Part shown: positions 2,259-57,452 of the stretch, piece by piece | Layout of the letters: every line of letters starts with the position of its first letter | Numbering within the stretch: the stretch's first letter is position 1 | Notes under the pieces: model-generated | What the model was told of the DNA's origin: nothing | What the model saw: the letters and a program-made list of their open reading frames with translations, nothing else | Databases searched by the model: none | Position numbers and translations under genes: made by a program | NCBI GenBank assembly: GCA_951406725.2 | Contig: OX597825.1 | Span: 70,494,001-70,558,000 of the forward strand | Length of the DNA: 64,000 nucleotides | Reading direction: 5' to 3' | Source: Octopus vulgaris | Lineage: Eukaryota

Positions 2259-5132
2259 GAAAAAAAAATCTATTTCTCCACTCCTCTCTCTTACAACAAA
2301 ATGCAGTGATAATAATCAATGATATCAAGACATGATGCACCATGGGAAAATATCACTCAACAACAACATCAACAACGCTATACTATACATGCAAAAATAA
2401 TAACATTGAGGAAAAAAAGACCAAGGTAACTGGAATCATTAACAACAACAGATAACGAACCATAGAATATATATTTCTTTATTACCCACAAGGGGCTAAA
2501 CATAGAGGGGACAAACAAGGACAGACAAAGAGATTAAGTCGATTACATCGACCCCAATGCGAAACTGGCACTTTATTTATCAACCCTGAAAGGATGAAAG
2601 GTAAAGTCGACCTCGGCAGAATTTGAACTCAGAACATAGTGGCAGACAAAATACTACTAAGCATTTTGCCCGGGGTGCTAACAACTCTGCCAGCTCGCCG
2701 CCTTAACGGACCATAGAATATAGTGGAACAAATAATCAATAGTTATTGACTAACAACACCACAAGGTCCAGTCCTTGCTGCAGCATGATAGCTTGTATGC
2801 TTAACCCTTTAGAACTCAGATTACTCAAATGTAATGCTTATTTATTCCCACTGGTTTTGAATTAATCATGAGTTATCTTATAGCCTCGAGATTTTAACGG
2901 GTGATTATTTGATTTAAAAGAGACATTGTAGGGTAGGTGTCAGAGGTTGGACCTGGCTGATTTGAACACAGAGCAAGTAGAATATTTGAGAGCCAGATAT
3001 GGCCAGTTTAAATGTTAAGAGTTAAATGACCCAAAGAGTTATGCCTGTAGCGCACAAGCTGCTGGTAGGGCCTCTCATGCTGGACGGGTCAAAAGATAAA
3101 GGCCAGATTAATATGGACCACTTCTACCCAGAAGCAAAAATGGGTTCGCATAGGGCCAACAGTACAACCAAGAAAAACAAACCAAAGTTACAAAAGCATT
3201 GATGACAATTCAAAACTAACAAGACTCGAAAGAGGAAGTAGAAAAGACAGTCCAGAGTTGAAAACAGGAGAGCAAAGTTGCCGAGGGATTTCTGACAGGG
3301 AGCAAAGGGCTTAAGTAAGTCAGTGACTATGAAATGTACAAGTGTTTTGGATCACATGGCTAAAACCTTGAATACTTGGTGTATTCCTTGTAGAATAACA
3401 AAACAGAACTGCAAACAAATTTTTAGCAACAGAACCATCATAATAATTTTTTCTGTAATAGGCAGAAGAGAAGGCCTGAAATTTAGTGGGAAGCTGCTAG
3501 TTGACTATGCCAACCCCAGTACTCAACTATTACTTATTTTATTAACACCTGAAAGAGTAAAAGGAACTGGTCAATGTTGATAGAATTTGAACTCAGAATG
3601 TAAAGCTGGAAGAAATATCACTTAGCATTTTGTCTAGTATGCTGGCAATTCTGCCAGCTAGCTGCCTTTGTAATTTTTGGCACAAGGTCAGCAGGTATGC
3701 AAGGAGGGGCAAGTTAATTACATTGAACCAGTAATTTATTGGAGCCAATGTATTTTATCAACATCAAAAGTACAAAAGGCAAAGCTGACCTCAGCAGAAT
3801 TTGAACCCAGGACATAAAGCTAGAAGAAATGCTATTTAGTGTTAGTCCAACATGGTAATGATTCTACCAGCTCACTGCCTTTAAAGTTGATCCTAATGAT
3901 TCTACCAGATTCTACCAGAGTATAATGACTCCACCAGTTCACTGTCTTTAAACTTAATGATTCTACCAGATTCTACCAGAGTCTAATGATTCCAATAACA
4001 AAGGTTTCTAATTTAGTCATAATGCCAACAATTTTGAAGGAAGGGAGTTAGCCAATATCATCAACCCCCATACCAGATTAGGATTTTCTTCCATTGGCCC
4101 TGAAAGGGTGGAAAGAAAAATTTGCGTTGACTGGTTTACAATTCAGAATTTAAAAAAAAAGTTGGGGAGGGGACTACACTAACACTAAAAATTATACCAA
4201 TCCCCTACCATTAATTATGTCAGCTTTTATTATATTGATTACTTCAATACACATGTATGTGTGTGTGTGTGTGTGTGTATGTGTGTGTGTTTGTGTGCAC
4301 ATGTGTTTGTGTTTGTGCTTGTCCCCTCCCATGACGACTTGACAGCCTGTGTTTGTTTGTTTGTATCCTAGTAACTTAAGCAGTGTTTGGCAAAAGAGAC
4401 CAGGCTTAAAAAAATAATCACTGGGATTGATTTGTTTGACTAAAAACTCTTTGAGGTGGTGCCCCAGTATGGCCACAGTCCAATGACTGAAAACAAGTAA
4501 GAACATAGGTAAAAAAAAACAATCAAAGATATACACTATGTAAAAAGAAATATATATATAAAACATTTGCAAAGTTGTCGTCGCTGCCGTTTAACAGGAG
4601 CCGGCCAGGCTGGAGCCTACACCACACTTCTGTGTCTGTTTTTGGCAGGTAGGGAAGTAAATATCACTACTACTGCTGCTACAACTCCTCTTCCTTCTCC
4701 TCCCCTCCTCCTCTTACTACAGCTGTTACTAGTTACAGCACTATTTCTACCGTCATCACAACAACAGCATGAACAATCTCTAGTACACTACTAATACTAC
4801 TGCTACTGCAACTGTCGTTGTTGCATCAACTACTACAACTATTGGTGATGCTACCACCACAACTACCATCACCACTACCATCAATGCCACTACTACTAAT
4901 TATGATCTCTTTTGCAGAGATACACTGTCCACATTTGAATTGTACAGCCTCATTTGATTTCACTCCTGTGTATCAGTAGGATTCACTATGGGCTCGGGGA
5001 AAGCAAGGGAACCTCTCTGTCGTTGCTTGACCTGTAAGAAATAGTAGCCAAATCTCCTTCAAATCACACTCTGCTGTCTTAAACGACAAAGCGAGGATGG
5101 TCATGACTGGAATGTCTTTGATCATAAGACTG

Positions 5133-5862
5133 GCTGATCAATCAGTAGGGGCTGGTCAATCAGCAGGGGCTGGTCAATCAGCAGGGGCTGGCCAATCAGC
5201 AGGGGCTGGTCAATCAGCAGGGGCTGGTCAATCAGCAGAGGCTGGCCAATCAGCAGGGGCTGGTCAATCAGCAGGGGCTGGTCAATCAGCAGGGGCTGGC
5301 CAATCAGCAGGGGCTGGTCAATCAGCAGGGGCTGGTCAATCAGCAGGGGCTGGCCAATCAGCAGGGGGCTGGTCAATCAGCAGGGGCTGGCCAACCAGCA
5401 GGGGCTGGTCAATCAGCAGGGGCTGGCCAATCAGCAGGGGCTGGCCAATCAGCAGGGGCTGGCCAATCAGCAGGGGCTGGTCAATCAGCAGGGGCTGGCC
5501 AATCAGCAGGGGCTGGCCAATCAGCAGGGGCTGGTCAATCAGCAGGGGCTGGTCAATCAGTAGGGGCTGGTCAATCAGCAGGGGCTGGCCAATCAGCAGG
5601 GGCTGGCCAATCAGCAGGGGCTGGCCAATCAGCAGGGGCTGGTCAATCAACAGGGGCTGGCCAATCAGCAGGGGCTGGTCAATCAGCAGGGGGCTGGCCA
5701 ATCAGCAGGGGCTGGCCAATCAGCAGGGGCTGGTCAATCAGCAGGGGCTGGCCAATCAGCAGGGGCTGGCCAATCAGCAGGGGCTGGTCAATCAGCAGGG
5801 GGCTGGTCAATCAGCAGGGGCTGGCCAATCAGCAGGGGCTGGTCAATCAGCAGGGGCTGGTC
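5133..5862. repeat. 18-bp GC-rich minisatellite (GGGGCTGGYCAATCAGCA), about 40 copies
   Basis: Read directly from the sequence; explains the AGAGQS / GWPISR / PLLIDQ pseudo-ORFs. Confidence 0.97.
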
Positions 5863-9010: not shown

Positions 9011-9326
9011 GAAGAAGAAAGAAAGGAGAAAACCACAGCTTACTACCTTAAAAAATGGGGAGTGATCAACACATCAGACAATAGTAGTCCTTGATACACT
9101 AAGACAATAATAACAGCCATGGTTAGAACACCTTTGATCACAGGTCTACTGTGTCACAGCTGATCCAAGGGCTAAACAACAATAACAACACAATAAAAGG
9201 CAAAAAAAAAAAAGCAAACTAACAAACAAACAGCAAAAAGTCTTGTATGTAAGATGAGAAGATGAAATGTGAAGTAAAAAAATGTGGAGAATTCAGATTG
9301 TTACAAGAAGACTTTTCAGAACTTAC

Positions 9327-9458
9327 TGAGATTGTTTGGGCACTTGCTGGAGAGATTCTTGTGCTTGCATTTTCTTGTTGGTTCGCAGAAGACAGGGAAC
9401 GAAAATGATTGCCAATCCATTGGCAGACATCTTGTTACTGTCTTCATGTTGGGCCACA
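9327..9458 (-). CDS. MYO9: Myosin-IX exon: RhoGAP C-terminal motif (VAQHEDSNKMSANGLAIIFVPCLLRTNKKMQAQESLQQVPKQS)
   Basis: aag| and |gtaagt, 132 nt, phase 2 to 2. Contains the canonical RhoGAP N.M...NLAI.F.P.L motif. Confidence 0.96.
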
Positions 9459-9628
9459 CTTTTTTGGAAAAAAAAAAAAAATGTGGAGGAACAAAATATT
9501 AATTAAATTTCATTCAATATTTCCCGAAAAAATGATAATTACTTTTTTAAAACCACACAGATGAGAAATCATTTTTATGTCACCCTTTTGGATATGGTGC
9601 CAGTCTAACACAGGAAAAATATTTACAG

Positions 9629-9856
9629 TTAACCCTTTCGTTACTGTATTTATTTTGAGATGCTCTGTGTTTCTTTTAATTACTTTAAATATAGCAAAGA
9701 ATTTATCAAAATAACTTAGTTATTATTCAGCTAGTGTTAAGAACATAAATTGTGACTAAGGTTTGGTGGAAGATTTTAATTCAAAACTTATGAAAACAAG
9801 ACATTTGTATTCAGAGCCAAGGCCAGTTTCAGCCGGGTTGGTAACGAAAGGGTTAA
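9629..9856. mobile_element. piggyBac-type MITE (TTAA target duplication, CCCTTTCGTTAC termini)
   Basis: ttaa-ccctttcgttac ... gtaacgaaaggg-ttaa; other copies in the window. Confidence 0.85.
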
Positions 9857-10397
9857 ACACTACAGTTTAACAAATCACCAATTTTATAGTGCTCCCACCA
9901 CTTACACTAGCAATTTCTGCTGCTCTGTGGTATTCTGTAATAAACTCTACTATTCTGCAATAACTACTTACAACTGTGACCTCAACCACTCACTCGATGG
10001 TAACTACCGACATCAGAGTGGATTCAGTTGATGAGGGTTTAGTATTGTCGTGAGTAAACTGTGGCCTGCAAAGACTTTCTAAATGGCATGCCTAATAAAA
10101 AATTGCCTTCATTTTTTTTTTTTTTTAGTAGTTTGATCCTTCTAATGATGATCCAAGTTTCATGGAGCTCACTTCTCGAAAAAGGTTGTCCATGTCTGGT
10201 TTAGTTGTTGGACACTGATACAATGTAGGGAAAGAATACCAGGGAAATATTTGGTACTTACTTTCACCAACTAGGTTCATAACACACTTGATACATTAAC
10301 ACGTGGTACATGCCCTGTGTGTTTGTAATCACCAGGCCACATACTCATCAGGTACATATACACCTGGTACGTTGATACATCACACACAGATACCTGA

Positions 10398-10655
10398 CAT
10401 GTACATATTACATACACACCTGGTGTGTATATTTGCTGGGATATACACACCTGAGAAATACACACAAATCTAAAAATATATACATGTACATATTACATAC
10501 ACACCTGGTGTGTATATTTGCTGTGATATACACACCTGAGATATACACACAAACCTAAAAATATATACACGTACATATTACATACACACCTCTTGTGTAT
10601 ATTTTCTGGGATATACACACCTGAGACATACACACAAATCGAAAAATATATACAC
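10398..10655. repeat. 85-bp tandem repeat, 3 copies
   Basis: gtacatatta recurs at 10401, 10486 and 10571; each unit has a ggtgtgtatat...atatacacacc hairpin. Confidence 0.9.
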
Positions 10656-11436
10656 TTTATGCATACATATATATATAGTCATCATTTTCATCCATTGGAG
10701 CATCAAGGACTATATAGTCATCCTGAAGGAGCATCTGGTCAGCTAGTCATGACCGATGACTTGCAGCCTCCCTCTTTCGACTGTGACCACCTTCAATTCA
10801 GTCTCAAGACCAGGTGAAGATGACTGGAATTAAGATGAGTCCAGTGGATGACAAAGATGTCTTAAATATCACATTTTGCTCTCTGCCCTCCACAAGGCAT
10901 TGCTGCAGCCACCCTCCCTTCCACTGAGCTACGATGGTTTCTTTCCACAGAGCCCGCTAGATCCAGTCTTCACCCACATAGGTAAGCAAGCGATAATATG
11001 CCAATTAACCCGTTGCTGAGACCTTGATAGGTGCTATTGCTCTGGGTCAGTGTGAACTTGAGGATAATAGTAGCCTAAAAGTGGTACCACACTCCTCAAA
11101 ATTCTGGAACTTCCGAACCAGGGGTGCCCCAGCATGGCCGCAGCTGAAACATTTTTAAGGATTTAAGGATTTTTTACTCGATGCAGTTTAAAGTCATATT
11201 CAGGACTTCCATATAAAGTATGTATATGCACACCTTGTATATGCATACCTGGTACATATGAACATATGAATGGACCTGCTGTATGCACACATAGTAATGT
11301 ATATATTAATACAGACATATAAAACATAGAACATGCGTACACATGATACATACCTATCTTACACACACACACTTGGTACAGACACAGATGTTACTTTAGA
11401 ATCAAATGGAAGTGAAATAAACCATTCTTTCCTTAC

Positions 11437-11542
11437 CGGGCAAGATGGAATATGAGACGTTCAAATAAATGGTAGTTAGATTTGGGAAGACGTTCTGTAA
11501 CTGCATACAAAGCTTGGATGGCCTCTACCGACTCTTTGATTT
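11437..11542 (-). CDS. MYO9: Myosin-IX exon: RhoGAP (IKESVEAIQALYAVTERLPKSNYHLFERLIFHLAR)
   Basis: cag| and |gtaag, 106 nt, phase 1 to 2. LP..N...L..L..HL RhoGAP motif. Confidence 0.96.
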
Positions 11543-11930
11543 CTGAAGAGAATAACATGAGATAGTGTTACAGGAAAGAGAGAGAGAGGCACACAGACAG
11601 ACTGAAAGAAAATATCAAAATTTTAGTAAATGAACATTTTTGAATAGATAATAATGTCTTAAATTGGCGATTGGTCGTTAAGGTGGAAGATACTTTAAAG
11701 TAGAGTGAATGAAAGGTAATGAGAAACTTAGTGAAATTTGAACTCAGAACACAGGTGAAGCAGGTGAAAACTAAAAAGAGCCAAGCAGTATTGAGTTTTT
11801 TTACTTGTTTGTTTGTTTGTAAGTATGTATGGATGTATGGATGGATAGATGGAAACATAGACAGACAGACAAAAACATAAATAGATAGATAGATAGACAG
11901 ATGGAGTTTGTCTATTTGCGAATCAATTAC

Positions 11931-12059
11931 CTGAGGCTTGAATGAAATCATCATAAAGATCGTATGTTAAAAGGGGTTCTGGAAGCTCGCGGAAGAAACA
12001 CTTCAACGTCGTGGTGAGTACGTGAATTGGATATTCATCTAAGTCTACATTTTCAATAC
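11931..12059 (-). CDS. MYO9: Myosin-IX exon: RhoGAP (GIENVDLDEYPIHVLTTTLKCFFRELPEPLLTYDLYDDFIQAS)
   Basis: cag| and |gtaatt, 129 nt, phase 1 to 1. LK.FFRELPEPLLT motif. Confidence 0.97.
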
Positions 12060-12276
12060 CTGAAAGAAGAATGGAACCAATTAAATGGTGTACACTAACA
12101 ACTCTGCCAGATCAATGTATAATAATAATAATAATAATAATAACGACGCCGACGCCACCAATGACCTCCTTCGGTCATGACACAGACCATGGGATTGCAC
12201 CTAGAAAGTTACCCTCCCAGGCACAACCTCATGATCGTAAGCTTGATGCTCTAACCACTGAGCCATGTGCCTTCAC

Positions 12277-12337
<61 letters not shown>

Positions 12338-12623
12338 CTGATGTGCTAACAATTCTGCCATCTAGCCACCATAATGGTGGTGGTGGTGGTGGTGATGGTG
12401 ATAAAGGAAGTAGACTGATTTAATTAAATAGACCCTAATACTCAACCAGTATTTTATTTTATTAAACACTGAAAGGATTAAAGGCAAAGCTGACTTCAGA
12501 TGGATTTCAGTTGAGATCAATATGCCATAAGCACTTTCCTAAAAATAATAACAATAATAATTTAAAAAAAAGAAAAAAAAAAGGAGCCATCCCTGTCCGT
12601 TCCTTCCTGTAAAGGCTACTCAC

Positions 12624-12816
12624 CTTCTTCATCTACTGCATTCTTCAACTGCTTCACTTTGGCAGCGGCACCACATTTTCGGTATAAGCCAACTGTATAA
12701 AGACCGTGTAGTTCTATAGCTGAGATTAACTTTTCAGCGACCAAAGGCACATTTTCTCCATCAGTTATCAAAGACTCAAGAGGAAAGCCAAACACTTGGT
12801 TATTTCCAACTGAACC
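12624..12816 (-). CDS. MYO9: Myosin-IX exon: RhoGAP N-terminus with arginine finger (GSVGNNQVFGFPLESL...HGLYTVGLYRKCG...VDEE)
   Basis: cag| and |gtgag, 193 nt, phase 0 to 1. FG.PL..L and GLYRK.G motifs. Confidence 0.97.
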
Positions 12817-12949
12817 CTGTGAAAATAGACAAGGGAAAGAATCATTCCAACAGTGAATGTTTGGAAAGCATTTCAATAGCATAATCCTAGCATATATCTA
12901 TCTATAAATATATATATATCAAAATAAGCAACAAGGATATCCAGAGGTA

Positions 12950-19009: not shown

Positions 19010-19520
19010 CTTCAGTCACATGGAGGTGTTCAAGACTGTCGCATATTCTGAACGCCTTACTTCCCTGGGCATGGATACATTGAAACTCCGACGTCTGGCA
19101 GCTGACTTGGCAGACAACCATAAAATTATTAACCATCTTACTAACAATAACTCTGAGCACCTTTTCAAACTCCACCCGTCTAACACCCGTGGACATATTT
19201 ACAAAGTCAGAAAACAGCACAGCTCCCATGACTTTCGGAAACATATTTTCACGCTAAGAGTTGCTGAAGCATGGAACAAACTGCCGGCATCAGTCGTTAG
19301 TTGTCGGAGCACTGCATCCTTCAAAACTTCTATGCTTCCTGAGATTCGCCAACACTACACCTGATTTTCTCCCCTCCATACACACACAAGCATGTATCTG
19401 ACTCATACATTGTTCACTTTCCAGACATTTGTACATTACTGCATATGCTTTATACGCACTTTTGACAAGTTGTGGTGCACCTGAGCACTGTATACAATAA
19501 TTTCATTATTATTATTATTT
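19010..19520 (+). mobile_element. 5'-truncated CR1-clade LINE (ORF2 C-terminus, 3' UTR and (TAT)n tail)
   Basis: Peptide Y.ERL..L...TL..RR...DL...TRGH..K...R..F..RV...WN.LP..VV....SFK is the typical CR1 RT C-terminus. Confidence 0.88.
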
Positions 19521-19706
19521 TAACACTTTATATCCAACTTAACATGGTTGTTTTGTTAGATCATCAAATACTGAAGTACACCATGCATTCTTAGGTGAAT
19601 ACCACAAACAAACCCTCCAGGTGAAGTTGGATGTAACGATTGACTTTTAGAATTTTAGAAAATATATATAAAAAAAACAACAAAAACTACAAACAATGGC
19701 ACTTAC

Positions 19707-21956: not shown

Positions 21957-22249
21957 TCATTTTTGGATTTGGTTTGCAAGATTCTTTATATGAGTTCGTG
22001 TGTTGAAGCATATTCTATTGTGTCTGGGGGAGTCATTTTCTTTTTGTGCCTTATTATTATGTAAAACACTCACCGGTAAAATTTCCATGTTTTTCTTATT
22101 TTTATTGTCCTAAAATTTTCGTTGCGTCTTGCAACCTTTTCAATAGTTTTAGGACAATAAAAATAAGAAAAACGTGGAAATTTTACTGGTGAGTGTGTTA
22201 CATAATAAGGCACAAAAAGAAAATGATTCTCCTCAGACACAATAGAATA
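21957..22249. mobile_element. Fold-back repeat, same family as 57213-57443
   Basis: Arms about 22012-22117 and 22147-22249 are inverted; hammerhead-like loop; homologous copy at 57.2-57.4 kb. Confidence 0.8.
22110..22146 (-). ncRNA. Minimal hammerhead motif with U3-A8 core variant
   Basis: Minus strand: CTA-TTGAAAA-G-GTTGC-aagac-GCAAC-GAAA-AT-TT-TAG, sitting in the loop of a fold-back element. Confidence 0.6.
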
Positions 22250-25936: not shown

Positions 25937-26046
25937 AGAGTATTGTAATTTGCTTGAAGCATTGTGTATTGTTTGTGAAATATAAAGTGTCTTGAATGGC
26001 ACAACAATGCAGAGTGGATTATAATAACTGTTGTAATTTAATTATT

Positions 26047-26216
26047 GCAGCGTGGAAGGCGTTTATAAGCCATTTAAGAAACACAAAAACCGTTAGATTC
26101 GCTTCAACATTTAGATTTAATTTGTCAAAATATTTTCATCGCTTTGAGACTGCGACCTGTTCACTGACAAAACTCCATGCTGCATCGGCATCTCTTGCTA
26201 TGCAAGTACATCTCCA
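26047..26216 (-). mobile_element. Short hammerhead-bearing retroelement with 13-bp target-site duplication
   Basis: Flanked by taatttaattatt at 26034-26046 and 26217-26229; homologous to 35602-35747. Confidence 0.75.
26121..26171 (-). ncRNA. Minimal hammerhead motif with G3-C8 core variant (copy 1)
   Basis: Minus strand: TTTGTCA-GTGAACA-G-GTCGC-agtctcaaa-GCGAT-GAAA-ATAT-TT-TGACAAA. 7-bp stem I, palindromic stem III. Confidence 0.68.
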
Positions 26217-26250
26217 TAATTTAATTATTCATAGTCTGATATGCTGATAG

Positions 26251-26450
26251 ACTTCCATGCTTCCTGAGATTCGCCAACACTACACCTGATTTTCTCCCTT
26301 CCATACACACACAAGCATGTATCTGACTCATACATTGTTCGCTTTCCAGACATTTGTACATTACTGCATATACTTTATATGCACTTTCTGACAAGTTGTG
26401 GTGCACCTGAGCACTGTATACAATAATTTCATTATTATTATTATTATAAT
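26251..26450 (+). mobile_element. Very short 3' fragment of the same CR1 LINE
   Basis: Near-identical to 19325-19520 including the (TAT)n tail. Confidence 0.85.
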
Positions 26451-26593
26451 TATGATAATATTTTCGGAATATAAAAATTCCTTCTTCAGATATTGCTAGG
26501 AATTGATCAGGTCACTGCTATAATCAGTTTTTTATAAAAAAATTGAGTAACCATTGGAAAACCAATTATAGCAGAGACTTGATCAATTCCTAG

Positions 26594-26640
26594 TGATATC
26601 TGAAGAAGGAACTTTTATATTCTGAAATATTATTATATCA
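26594..26640 (+). ncRNA. Hammerhead motif (C3-G8) in the right arm of a fold-back element
   Basis: TGATAT-CTGAAGA-AGGA-acttttata-TTCT-GAAA-TATTA-TT-ATATCA. An inverted copy at about 26452-26495 has lost its 3' stem I strand to a CR1 insertion. Confidence 0.6.
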
Positions 26641-29600
26641 GACTATGAATAATTAAATTATAACAGTTATTATAGTCCACTCTACATTGATCTGCTATTC
26701 AAGACACATTATATTTCACACACATATATATTGGCACTACGTTGGTTACCATGACGAGTGCTCCAGTTGATCCGATTAACGGAGCAGCCTGTTTGTGAAA
26801 TTAATATGCAAGTGGCTGAGTACTCCACAGACGTGCATACCCTTAATGTAGTTCTCGGGAAGATTCAGCTTGACACAGGATGTCACAAGGCTGAGCCTTT
26901 GAAATACAGGTACAACTCATTTTTGGCCAGCTGAGTGGACTGGAGTAATGTGAAATAAAGTGTCTTGCTCAAGGACACAACGTTTCACCAGGAATTGAAC
27001 TCACAACCTTACAATCACAAGCCAAAAATCCTAACCACTGAGCCACGTGCCTTCACTCATGTATATACACACAAACATATTCAAGATTCATTTAAAATTA
27101 CACACATACACATACACACACAATCATCATCATCATCATCATTATCATCCCTTTAACAGATGTTGTTTCATGCATGTAGGAGTTAGACAAGAATTTGTTG
27201 AGGCAGATTTTCTACAACCAAATGTTCTCGCTCTACCTGCCTGCCATCCTTTGATCAGCAAGATGGGCACAAACACATACACACACATGCATGCGCACGC
27301 ACACGCACACACACACATACACACACAAAAGGCTTGTTTCAGTTTCCGCTTGCCAAAAGCACATACATGATATTACCCCAGCCCAGGATTATAATAAAAG
27401 ACATTTCACACACCCCCATCCACCCACCCCAGGTCCCATGCAGTGGGTCTGCACCCAAAACTATGTAGTTGCAAAGTAAACCTGTCAGCCAGCCACACAG
27501 CTATACCTGCCTCCCCTACCTACTGCCACACACACACACACACACATACATACACAAATGTGTGCACACATAGCAGAAAGGATTGCTGATTGTAAAAGTA
27601 CTGCCTTAATCAAGCACCCATCTAACCTATGCCAGTATAGAAAAATGGATGTAAAAGGAACACAAAAGATTACAAACACAGGAGTTGAACCTGTTTCGAC
27701 ACGACTCGATCCAAGATTCTATGTTTTAAGAAAAGCAATTATTTCATGAAAGAGCCAAGAAAACCATTTATGTTTTTATTGCCCACAGGGGGTTAAACAT
27801 AGAGGGGACAGACAAGGACAGACAAAGGGATTAAGTCAAAATACTAACCCTAACCCTAACCTTTGGGCTGGCTGGTGCCCATTTTCCTTTGTTATCATGA
27901 GGTTTTTTTTTTGAGCTGGATTTTCTATGGGGAGCATGCCCTTGCTTACCCCCAACCACAGTTTCTAGACATGAGTGGTCCCAAGACCAAGGCCTCTACC
28001 ACTAATTTTAAGAAATGTGGTGAAGAACTAGCTCTGGAAGGCAGGGACATGTATAACTGGTATTTATTTAATCGACCCCGAAAGAATGAAAGGCAAAGTC
28101 AACCTCGGCGAAATTTGAACTCAGAATATAGCAGCAGATGAAATACCGCTAAGCATTTCGCCCAGCGTGCTAACGTTTCTGCCAGCTCGCCACCTTCTGG
28201 TCTATCACACCTAGCCTACAATGTCATCCTAAAAGTAAACGATCACCTCATCAAAATCTAAAAGCTACAAGATAATGGATGATTAATTCAAAATATTGTG
28301 AATAAATAAGGATTTCATTTTCGCAGGGTAATCTGAATGTTAAAGGATTTCTTTTTAAAATAGAAAAAAATTCTTTGGCTGCATTTTCAACATGGCATTA
28401 GAAGTTAATTAATGGGAAGATGGCTTCTTTACAACAAACGGAGCAAATAGCAAAATAAAAATAAAAATAAAAAACTGGGATTTATATGATAAGCATTATT
28501 GATTAAACATGTTATAATTAAAATAAGCAAATAACAGTCTGCAACAGACAGAACAGAACGAAAGTACCAAAGTAATTAACAAGAATTGCTAATGAAGCAG
28601 AAAGTTTCACATTCAAAGCAAGAAACCTTAAGCTTTAGAACAAGGCTCTGCAGATAAATGTTTTTGTTTTTTGTTTTTGTTGTTGTTGGTGGTGGTGGTA
28701 TATTGCACCTGGTACATTGTATTCAAGTATCATATCTATGATCAAAGGCATTCCAGCCATGACCATGCCAAATCTTTCCAATGTTCAGGATACCCTGCAC
28801 ATTATCTAATGTGTTCTTTCCTATGAATGTAGGAAGAGAGCTGATGGTGATTTGGCTGTTATTTTTAGCGTATTGAGCCACCACAGAGATGCTCTTTCAC
28901 TGGCATGTTGTTGTTGTTGTCTGCGTGTGTGCGTGCATGTGATTAATTCATGAATGAACTACTCATTAAAGCACGTTCATATCTTTCCTCACTTTTCAAG
29001 AAAATAATAGATATTTAACAAAGGGTGCTACCTCAAGGTCAGCAGCTCTCAACCATAACTCCCAGATCCACATGCGGCCCTCAAGCATGCTTCTGGCGAG
29101 CCCCAACAATCTTCCCTCTTTAAATATAAATTTTCTTTAAGTGACTTGCGTTTTACTTTTTTGAATGTGGCCCTTGTAAAAAAAATCCTGGTGTGGGAGC
29201 TAGCAAGGATATTAAGAACCACCACTCTAGGTGGTCAATCATCTTGCTAGAAACAGCAGTCAAATCTCATCAACTCTCATTCTACTGTCTCAAAAAAATG
29301 AAACGCATATTAGACAAAAAAATAGCTCTAGACTTAATATGTTTTGGTGTGGTAGTGGTGGGGGAGGGAGGGAATATGTGGGGATGGTATTCATAACAGG
29401 AACACATTTGTCCATTTCTAATTGTGACTTCACTTTCAGCACATCAGATCCCTCTTGCTTAATCGGGAAACAAAACATCATCATTATCGTTTAACATCTG
29501 CTTTCCATGCTGGCATGGGGTGGATGATTTGACTGAGGACTGGTGAACCAGATGGCTGAACCAGGCTCCAATCTTGATCTGGCAGAGTTTCTACAGCTGG

Positions 29601-35215: not shown

Positions 35216-35601
35216 TAACCCATAAAGAATTTTTATCCACTAATAGTCTTGAGCAGTCATTCTCATTGTTCAATATTAACATGTGTGTGTGTGTATATAT
35301 ATACACAGACACACGCACACACTCACATGCACACATATACTGGCAATACTAATAAAGTTAGTCAGAAGAAATGAAGGAATTGTTCCTTGGTTTATTCATG
35401 CACAGGTACAGAATGTTTTCACATTTTCCAAGGAAACAAAATGAGATAGAATGATATAAAATGAATTGAAATAAAATAAAATAAAATGAAATAAAGAGCA
35501 TTTACATTATTACATTTAAATTTCTTAAATGTATCAATGCATATATGCCACTTTGTTTTACTTAATTTGGCTTTATTTTAAATTCATTTCATTCCATTTA
35601 A

Positions 35602-35747
35602 GAAACACACAAAAGCCGTTCGATTCACTTCAACATTTAAGTTTAATTTGTCAAAATATTTTCGTCGCTTTAAGACCGCAACCTGTTCACTGACAAAAAT
35701 CCGTGCTGATCTCAGATCAAATCACTTGCTATGCAAGTACATCTCCG
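35602..35747 (-). mobile_element. Second copy of the short hammerhead-bearing retroelement with 13-bp target-site duplication
   Basis: Flanked by tcattccatttaa at 35589-35601 and 35748-35760; same terminus (gtacatctcc) as copy 1. Confidence 0.75.
35647..35697 (-). ncRNA. Minimal hammerhead motif with G3-C8 core variant (copy 2)
   Basis: Minus strand: TTTGTCA-GTGAACA-G-GTTGC-ggtcttaaa-GCGAC-GAAA-ATAT-TT-TGACAAA. Confidence 0.68.
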
Positions 35748-35858
35748 TCATTCCATTTAATTTCCTTGGAAAACACATCTACAGAAAATGTGAAAACTTT
35801 CTGTAGCTGTATATACAAATAAATCACACAAGAACAATTCCTTCACTACTGACTAAGC

Positions 35859-49984: not shown

Positions 49985-51350
49985 GTGGCGAAACTATAAA
50001 AAAAGTTGGAGAGGAAGGATATAAGTACCTGGGTATCATTGAAAGAAATAAGATGAATGAACACAAGATGAAATAAATGTACAGGAAAGAGTATTTGAGG
50101 AGAACTTGGCTTGTGCTCCAATCGAAGCTGAATGGCCACTATAAGATTAGAGCAATTAACACGTGGGCTGTTGCTTTGATGAGATATGGGGCAGGATTAG
50201 TATCTTGGAAGAAGAATGAATTACAAGTGATAGACTGGAAAAAACGTAAATTAATGACAATGAACAAGGAACTACACCCGAAAAATGATGTGTCAAGATT
50301 GTATGCTAAGAGGAAAGAAGGGATATGGGGATTAATGCGTTGTGAAGGTTGTGTAAGGGAAGGGGAGAATAGCCTGGCTTGGTCTGTCAAGGGGAGTAAA
50401 GAAGAAATGATTGAAGCAGTGAAAATGCAGGGAACCTTAAAAGTGAATGAAGCCGTAGATCCAACACAATTTAAGAAAGACTAGAAAGAGGAGATGAAGA
50501 AAATTTGGCAGGACAAAAAAATGCAGTCAGTTCTTGAAGAATAAAGATGAGATTGACTGGAATAGAACCTAGCAATGGCTGAAGAAAGGAGACTTAAAAG
50601 GGCCCACTGAAGCATTAGTGTGCAGTGCTCAAGAACAAGCTCTCAGAACAAACTACTCCAAATATCACATTGATAAAAGCACTGACTCACCACATAGCAG
50701 GATATGCTCTGAGAAGGGAGAAAGTATAAGCCATATTGTTGCTGAGTACTGTAAGCTGGCACAATGCAAATACAAAAGGAGACACGACAATGTGGCCAGA
50801 TATGTCCACTGATTGTTGTTCAGTGAAGCAAACCTTGAGAGAGCCAAACAATGGTATGAACACAAGCCAGAGGGAGTAATGGCAAATGGACATTACAAAA
50901 TACTCTGGGATTTTAACATGCTGTGCAATCAAGTCATAGGGGCGAGATGGCCAGATATCGTGATCATCCATAAAGATGAAAAAGAAGCAAAGATAATGGA
51001 TATTGCAATACCATGCGATTCGAGGGTGAAATGTAAGGAAACAGAAAAGATTGAAAAATACCAGCCACTGCGGGACGAGATAGGAAAGTTATGGGGCATG
51101 AGGAAAGTAATGGTGATACCGGTGGTAATTGGAGAATTAGGAACAGTTTCCAAGAGCTTTGAAAACCATATTAAGAATATTGGAGTTGCTGTCAAGCTCG
51201 AGGTGATCCAGAGGACAGCAATGTTGGGTACAGTTCACATTCTAAGGAGAGTATTGTCTCTTTGAGTCACTACTTGAAACCTTTAGTGATTTGTTATTAC
51301 CTACTTTCAAGTAAAGATCAATTACAAATAGTACCGCCAGAATCAAAACA
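49985..51350 (+). mobile_element. Degenerate 5'-truncated non-LTR retrotransposon with restriction-like endonuclease (R4/Dong-like)
   Basis: Broken ORFs 50077-51265: RT thumb region, AQEQAL.T, zinc-knuckle remnant, RRHDNVA, ILWDF, PD..I..K and DIAIP.D..KE.EK..KY. Several stops and frameshifts; ends in an (AAC/AAT)n tract. Confidence 0.88.
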
Positions 51351-57204: not shown

Positions 57205-57212
57205 CATATATA

Positions 57213-57443
57213 TACTGTTGTGTCTGGGGAGAGTCATTTTCTTTTTGTGCCTTATAATGTAACACACTCACCGGTAAAATTTCCACTTTTTAGGGAAATA
57301 AAAATAAGAAAAAAGTGGAAATTTTACCGGTGAGTGTGTTACATTATAAGGCCCAAAAAGAGAATGACTCTCCCCAGATACAACAGAATATGCTTCAACA
57401 CACAAACTCATATAAAGAATCTTGCAAACCAAATCCAAAAACG
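57213..57443. mobile_element. Fold-back repeat, same family as 21957-22249, TA-flanked
   Basis: Inverted arms about 57213-57291 and 57309-57388, followed by the shared family tail gcaaaccaaatccaaaaa. Confidence 0.8.
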
Positions 57444-57452
57444 ATATATATA

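Follow-up and report, generated by a model that had tools for sequence, protein, structure and literature searches.

An Intronic Insertion in Octopus vulgaris Is Probably a Penelope-like Element Fragment Carrying a Hammerhead Motif with a Natural G3-C8 Core Pair

Results

Two Insertions of One Family in a Likely Class IX Myosin Gene

The stretch of Octopus vulgaris DNA analyzed here is 64,000 nucleotides long and is referred to below as the window. Its minus strand carries three RhoGAP-coding exons (9326–12834; Pfam PF00620) of a likely myosin IX gene, and myosin-head exons are found on the same strand ∼106 kb and ∼257 kb past the window end. Two short insertions of one repeat family are present in the window. 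Because the RhoGAP exons lie downstream and the myosin-head exons upstream of both insertions on the same strand, an intronic, sense-oriented position in a likely class IX myosin gene is supported. Exon positions and strand thus agree with the original prediction, in which the insert was placed in the same sense as MYO9 pre-mRNA. Elsewhere in the window, a tandem repeat array at 5132–5862 covers ∼730 bp, its offsets being multiples of 18, and broken plus-strand frames at 50077–51262 resemble the C-terminal region of a protein from a non-LTR retrotransposon.

The first insertion is a 170-nt insert (26047–26216) flanked by perfect 13-bp direct repeats (26034–26046 and 26217–26229). It sits within one arm of a host foldback repeat whose arms are 83% identical over 180 nt, inserts excluded. 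The opposite arm provides an empty site (26635–26689, minus strand) that holds the 13-mer only once (26648–26660), and so the 13-bp repeat is a true target-site duplication. Three nucleotides of its first copy also match the element end, and a few nucleotides of its second copy also form the end of the tail. The coordinates and the empty site together confirm the predicted insert between perfect direct repeats. The foldback as a whole spans about 25970–26720; its left arm took both the 170-nt insert and a 199-bp element (26251–26449) that recurs at 19326–19523.

The body of the insert (26047–26186, minus strand) is a piece of the pLTR of a Penelope-like element (PLE), running from the putative transcription start (+2) to a tail-less 3′ end (∼+143 to +146), and is 87% identical to the pLTR end of the PLE locus L154 described below. 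It includes what read as the first nine codons of the PLE ORF (26047–26073, minus strand, with the ATG at 26073–26071), in a frame homologous to the beginning of a sister family's 1312-aa ORF. At the inversion junction, a short repeat of the first bases of the element can be read (26187–26193, minus strand). The remainder (26194–26216, plus strand) is an inverted piece of the family 3′ tail (∼+182 to +204) that belongs to the N-terminal part of the ORF and whose peptide resembles the sister ORF start. In PLEs, this tail is where reverse transcription has its second starting point.

The second insertion (35589–35760, minus strand) consists of a body (35602–35708), which carries a hammerhead motif at 35647–35697, and an inverted tail (35709–35747) between 13-bp duplications at 35589–35601 and 35748–35760. 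The two window copies are 84% identical and have the same core. The claim of a second copy at 35602–35747 thus stands as to its own 13-bp repeat and the swapped core but not as to the terminus, which is shared at one end only; that common terminus is the family 3′ tail, inverted. Copy 2 ends earlier than copy 1, via an 8-nt microhomology that belongs to the copy 2 duplication. With up to two mismatches allowed, a 14-mer gave five matches, two of them exact, against 0.36 expected. The insertion is one among thousands, and no role for the host is apparent.

A Type I Minimal Hammerhead Motif with a Swapped 3-8 Pair

Read from 26171 to 26121 on the minus strand, the insert contains the hammerhead-like motif that had been claimed, with the architecture of a type I minimal hammerhead. 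A 7-bp stem I (26165–26171 with 26121–26127) is followed by GUGAACA at core positions 3–9 (26158–26164), an extra G (26157), and a 5-bp stem II (26152–26156 with 26138–26142) closed by a 9-nt loop. GAAA (26134–26137), AUAU, UU, and the 3′ arm of stem I complete the motif. The palindrome occupies 26129–26134, U17 is at 26128, and the predicted cut lies between 26128 and 26127. By sequence reading, U4, G5, A6, A9, G12, A13, A14, the A15.1-U16.1 pair, and H17 are all present. The consensus C3 and G8 are absent, replaced by G3 (26164) and C8 (26159), which leaves positions 3 and 8 able to form a Watson-Crick pair as G3-C8. An Rfam search at the gathering score returned no match to either the motif or the unit.

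The minimum-energy structure of copy 1 comprises stems I and II (−11.5 kcal/mol, z = −1.68). Copy 2 likewise has stems I and II as its lowest-energy structure (z = −2.10), and a young family copy gave z = −3.40. A G3-U17 pair is possible, and the predicted lowest-energy fold uses it. Through the palindromic AAUAUU stem III, a double hammerhead can be drawn without clashes at −19.6 to −27.2 kcal/mol; it is 2–3 kcal/mol less stable than two monomers (ViennaRNA) and does not represent the fold of lowest energy. A single monomer, whose stem III has two pairs, would not be expected to cut the pre-mRNA.

Two features that had been listed alongside the swapped core turned out to be ordinary. The extra purine after A9 falls where PLE minimal hammerheads have an extra nucleotide after position 9 as standard, together with a palindromic mini stem III (PMC4209133), and the UUU cleavage triplet is not unusual because U17 is shared with C3-G8 and U3-A8 relatives. 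The stem II differences between the window copies do preserve pairing through two G-U pairs, as described. However, both sit at CpG sites and are expected from neutral CpG decay, so they have little to say on selection, and we rejected this apparent compensation as evidence for it.

The G3-C8 Core Is Fixed across the Family

We use family A for the PLE family of the 170-nt insert, with its G3-C8 core. A 32-letter stem I-N7-stem II pattern with the core left free had 3371 exact matches genome-wide (like the 3′ pattern count below, a number of arms rather than insertions and a lower bound), and the reversed control had none. GTGANCA was found in 2747 of these matches (81.5%), and the corresponding stem I-N8-stem II pattern recovered only six insertion variants. 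A 28-letter pattern further 3′ matched 8086 times genome-wide. Among 192 distinct matches in the collected loci, 180 had U4, G5, and A6 intact; 162 of these carried G3-C8 and none had C3. G3-C8 is thus fixed across the whole of family A. A natural swapped core in a mobile family, which had been proposed from the window copies, is what most genomic copies retain.

Position 8 strayed from C (15 of the 180; G in 6, T in 5, A in 4) more often than position 3 strayed from G (T3 in 3 of the 180). G3-G8 was seen in six arms (loci L120, L188, L208, L237, and L369) on differing subfamily backgrounds, and three of the six copies adjoin ORF fragments. The stretch is contained in 20 sequencing runs (11 studies, 5 organism labels) as assembled contigs, which cannot reveal starts, ends, or cleavage; no RNA data set was listed as containing it. 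In four of these runs, with four organism labels, no core variant reached 3% except for a CpG change at G12. Common (≥10%) non-CpG subfamily variants affected 0 of 12 core positions, 1 of 22 stem positions (U-A to U-G), 5 of 9 positions in loop II and N7, and 13 of 106 other positions, a weak contrast (p = 0.02, or 0.10 with wobble counted).

The Parent Is a Penelope-like Retrotransposon

The upstream boundary is retained by 517 family A copies. Beyond it lies a ∼1.1-kb 3′ region that links back to a frame in which YVDD, a CX3CxxC linker, and GIY-YIG are present. Locus L154 has a frame of 530 aa that contains YVDD and GIY-YIG (Pfam E = 9e-5), and after it come the pLTR, the hammerhead, and the tail. 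Pfam detected GIY-YIG only, and the RT was assigned from YVDD and from homologs named "reverse transcriptase domain." The order of parts in the parent is RT, CX3CxxC linker, GIY-YIG, ∼1.1-kb 3′ region, hammerhead, tail, and (TA)n. Eight ORF-bearing copies with frames of 646–1025 aa are 97.9–99.9% identical over 1584 nt, and all eight have the same G3-C8 motif, showing that family A was recently active with this core. Among the best 150 of 4676 candidates scored, the longest family A frame was 1025 aa and 5′ truncated. The link to a Penelope RT/GIY-YIG ORF that the original prediction had suggested looking for is therefore present, at L154 and at eight further loci.

Other family A copies run ∼60 nt past the 3′ end of the window copy, and the first 23 nt of the window copy correspond to the terminal part of that extension in inverted orientation. 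Over its last 90 nt, the unit has an open frame that resembles the beginning of the sister family's 1312-aa ORF; the match of the tail frame covers 11 aa with E = 0.06 and is weak alone. The tail of a further family, C, is 70% identical. Upstream of the main ORF start, a short frame of ∼22 codons begins with an ATG at +3 and passes through the hammerhead (L154, 9164–9231). A short GTGTGTTT-like motif is found ahead of the start codon of the ORF at L154 (9260–9277), L200 (2240–2272), L212, and L218, which are distant clade members.

The CX2-5CxxC linker is followed by a short spacer and CCHH-type residues, and its spacing is like that of the Nematis rather than the Neptune rows in the supplementary alignment of PMC8557442. 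By these linker motifs, family A resembles the Nematis clade. Loci L097–L102 belong to another PLE family, a young one of Neptune type in which many intact frames of 781 aa are present. A scan of these loci found no hammerhead near it, and it was rejected as a partner because it shares no DNA beyond chance neighbors. Two same-strand pairs of the upstream boundary on contig C2, considered as two pLTRs, were rejected as larger segmental duplications.

Insertion Anatomy and the Fixed 5′ End

The anatomy was read at 70 loci drawn from the first 100 listed 3′-pattern matches on contig C1, which gave 78 distinct arms in 64 distinct insertions. Arm 3′ ends fell at +143 to +152 (35 of 78) or at +198 to +206 (42 of 78), with one at +174. 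Arm starts were concentrated at −3 to +4 (31 of 78); four reached further upstream and the rest were spread. Head-to-head inversions made up 35 of the 64 insertions and single arms the other 29, and the tail was on one arm only in 28 of the 35 inversions. No head-to-tail array, an arrangement suggested as a check, was seen among the 64. A microsatellite was touched by 40 of the 64 insertions. Direct repeats of 8–14 bp flanked 17 of 24 loci with unique flanks, as against 1% in mismatched controls. The idea of a mobile retroelement inserted by target priming is supported by this anatomy. The inverted arms and one-sided tail match the anatomy of PLEs (Adineta, PMC3846280; also PMC8557442), and the pair of 3′ ends corresponds to the two internal sites at which RT was measured to start in the anole element (PMC11167929).

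At the fixed 5′ end there is an initiator-like TCA, with a TATA-like box at −30. Short copies ending in AG have a G where the template has C in 17 of 27 cases (p ∼1e-6 at 20% G), or in 11 of 21 when tail joins are left out (p ∼1e-3). The base preceding the extra G varies (A in 9, T in 6, C in 2). The cap can be copied during reverse transcription, as in work on L1. We infer from these features a Pol II start at +1 and regard the extra G as a putative copy of the cap, a reading for which a literature search found no support. With a start at +1 and a copied cap, the short copies would be promoter-less cDNAs begun at an internal start and extended as far as the cap.

Sister Families Have Different Watson-Crick 3-8 Pairs

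In two sister families, a motif occupies the corresponding position. Family B, whose 1312-aa ORFs have 53% protein identity, shows the complete tandem pLTR arrangement, and all 10 of its 10 motifs combine C3-G8 with C9. Family C, with 1761 candidates genome-wide, has U3-A8 in 22 of 25 motifs. Three families of one genome therefore carry three different Watson-Crick 3-8 pairs, accompanied by compensatory stem changes. Natural covariation to U3-A8 has been reported (PMC4209133; PMC3088659). Intact 1312-aa RT-GIY-YIG ORFs of family B, with a long asparagine-rich insert, were seen at loci L199–L203 (for example, L200, 2263–6198). Inverted short copies of family C also occur in the window, at 21957–22249, with a U3-A8 hammerhead at about 22100–22147 on the minus strand, and at 57210–57444, where the copy begins near the predicted cut site.

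We scanned 24 metagenome loci with related frames for the motif. The scan found C3-G8 in L216, L218, L226, and L228 and U3-A8 with C9 in L212, a motif with G4 was found by eye in L214 (1675–1720), and L221 and L234 are degenerate with a shortened first core strand. The remaining 16 of the 24 loci, several of which lack the 3′ flank, yielded no hammerhead motif. A single-protein scan of metagenomes, plus genome and viral contigs, gave no matches. Relatives with C9, with G4, or without a motif show that the core is not strictly kept and that the clade tolerates core change.

In an alignment of 10 motifs, positions 3 and 8 are paired in every row (CG in 5, GC in 3, UA in 2), and stem II is paired in all 48 filled cells. 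Overall 90.9% of cells are paired compared with 63.2% after shuffling, and 24 are changed on both sides compared with 7.3 in shuffles, statistics that ignore relatedness in an alignment where family A supplies three of the ten rows and three rows have a misaligned stem I. A tree of 22 frames, from a quick search without bootstrap and without the family C protein, places family A as sister to B (SH-aLRT 99) inside the C3-G8 relatives. This position indicates that G3-C8 is derived.

Evidence on Self-cleavage

A cut product would start at +60/61. None of the 78 arms starts at +58 to +65, the nearest starts being +55 and +57 in one locus. Genome-wide, the cut site has 34 junctions, and a control position three bases further along has 44. 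Reading 30 junction loci of each kind changed these values to ∼29 versus 25, with 14 of 30 equally explained by stem I microhomology; 13 of the 30 control loci turned out not to be junctions, and 4 of the 30 test loci represented internal deletions.

In the active hammerhead conformation, positions 3 and 8 are paired. Statements in PMC3884650 are consistent with this. In a PLE hammerhead, cleavage is abolished by either C3G or G8C alone and comes back in part when both are combined (PMC11167929). For the anole element, the same study describes catalytic mutants as being without effect on insertion in vitro and no reads as ending at the cut site (PMC11167929). What hammerheads do for PLEs has been stated to be unclear (PMC8557442).

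Discussion

We put at roughly 0.78 the probability that the insert is a promoter-less pLTR stub of a PLE, carrying a hammerhead with a natural G3-C8 core pair that is likely kept by selection in the parent. The RT-endonuclease of the element likely nicked AT-rich DNA at points 13 bp apart, and the capped 5′ end of the element RNA would have been copied from two internal start sites. A first priming event at +146 may have run to the cap and a second, in the tail, may have stopped after ∼23 nt, after which the two cDNA arms would have been joined head to head. The fold itself would be retained by selection acting on the parent element.

Self-cleavage is predicted to occur after U17, through the AAUAUU double hammerhead, and is expected to be weak, in a dimer or with protein help. 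Because the insertion templates are mostly uncut RNA, cutting would act on the transcript and not as a step needed for integration. Tandem read-through RNA and translation are possible targets. With the rest of the core intact, a palindrome that allows a double hammerhead, and the partial rescue by C3G/G8C in its favor, we lean toward a family A hammerhead that is catalytically competent. The chances appear evenly balanced for the further proposal that family A crossed a valley of inactive single mutants and fixed a working G3-C8 ribozyme, its sisters using C3-G8 and U3-A8.

It is less probable, yet conceivable, that the insert is the same PLE stub with a hammerhead that does not cut. The fold would then be a structural signal, for RT-endonuclease binding, translation, or RNA stability, or a recent relic, and G3-C8 would be tolerated because catalysis does not matter. 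Insertions that derive from uncut RNA fit such an account, as do the lack of a clear junction excess at the cut site and the normal insertion of anole catalytic mutants in vitro with no reads at the cut site (PMC11167929). Among the relatives, A9C, U4G, and lost motifs point the same way, and so does the G3-U17 wobble in the predicted fold. It is harder to reconcile with the distribution of the changes in family A, both of which fall on partners of one tertiary pair while U4, G5, A6, A9, G12–A15.1, and U16.1 are intact. By a rough count, two random hits in 11 core positions would give a Watson-Crick 3-8 pair less than 1% of the time. The three Watson-Crick 3-8 pairs in three families of one genome argue against it as well, and the 3-8 pair belongs to the active conformation.

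We consider it improbable that the fixed 5′ end is a splice acceptor, made up of a branch-point-like CTAAC, a pyrimidine tract, and CAG, and that spliced RNA was the source of the short copies. The upstream boundary has the sequence CTAAC...TTTCTCAG, and the intron of Drosophila virilis Penelope ends at helix I (PMC4209133), but the short copies share only the one extra G after a varying base, with no common first exon, and the TATA-like box stands at −30. Least probable of all, and largely refuted for the 170-nt insert, is the SINE/retrozyme-like family of the original prediction, that is, a non-autonomous unit of ∼206 nt with its own transcription, processed by the hammerhead to monomers or circles and mobilized in trans by a PLE: short copies are indeed far more numerous than long ones (8086 matches with the 3′ pattern versus 517 with the upstream boundary), have a fixed 5′ end and target-site duplications, and could have promoter-bearing solo pLTRs as sources, and retrozymes have been argued to derive from PLE pLTRs (bioRxiv 10.64898/2026.07.22.740005), but the unit is continuous with the pLTR of ORF-bearing copies of an autonomous PLE and includes its ORF start, the short copies are without the TATA region, form no head-to-tail arrays among the 64 insertions, and do not start at the cut site as processed monomers would, and no tRNA-like head or A-tail is seen.

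A PLE stub whose hammerhead is kept by selection in the parent has consequences beyond this locus. Because single-step 3-8 intermediates are inactive in the laboratory, a family-wide swap would be evolutionary evidence that the geometry of the active site matters to the element. The three families would offer, within one genome, ready-made natural 3-8 variants. If the reading is true, they make up a compensatory series in nature. That series would then show selection on cleavage by PLE hammerheads, despite inserted copies that derive from uncut RNA, and would reveal a class of natural hammerheads missed by CUGANGA-based searches. Descriptor and Rfam searches overlook thousands of motifs in this one genome.

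In literature with partial coverage of papers on PLE hammerhead variants, we found no natural G3-C8 core, only the laboratory mutant (PMC11167929; PMC3884650). None was met in the available parts of PMC6765202, PMC6155905, and PMC13282606, the last of which does not contain the word ribozyme there.

The closest known counterparts of the family A motif are the minimal hammerheads of metazoan PLEs (Cervera and De la Pena 2014, PMC4209133). Shared features are the type I topology, an additional base located between 9 and 10.1, the G10.1-C11.1 pair (in the majority of family A), the palindromic mini stem III, the position in the pLTR, and thousands of single dispersed copies. However, the known motifs have C3-G8 where family A has G3-C8, the extra base is H in their consensus and G in family A, and stem I is 4–5 bp in Schistosoma compared with 7 bp in family A.

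In its anatomy, family A is similar to Adineta Pen2a (PMC3846280) and the anole element PAc (PMC11167929). All have the first ORF codons in the pLTR, a tail extension, an inverted arm, a TATA box with an initiator, duplications of 8–14 bp, AT-rich targets, two 3′ ends, and an uncut RNA template. Three differences are apparent. The tail is 30–40 nt in those elements and ∼60 nt in family A, their hammerhead overlaps the ORF start whereas that of family A lies ∼60 nt upstream, and stubs reaching the presumed cap dominate in family A. With the Nematis clade (PMC8557442 supplement), family A shares a C-terminal GIY-YIG, the CX2-5CxxC linker, a 7-aa spacer to the next Cys, and CCHH-type residues; it differs in having DKS for DKG and a long N terminus (ORF >1000 aa).

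Non-LTR retrozymes (PMC7229834; bioRxiv 10.64898/2026.07.22.740005) resemble the family A stubs in being short and in effect non-coding, with a type I hammerhead and a PLE origin. Nevertheless, the units of retrozymes are arranged in head-to-tail tandems and each bears a hammerhead, and family A occurs as single or head-to-head stubs. Finally, the C3G/G8C double mutant made in the laboratory (PMC11167929; PMC3884650) has the same swap as family A, where it is natural, fixed, and carried by a recently active element.
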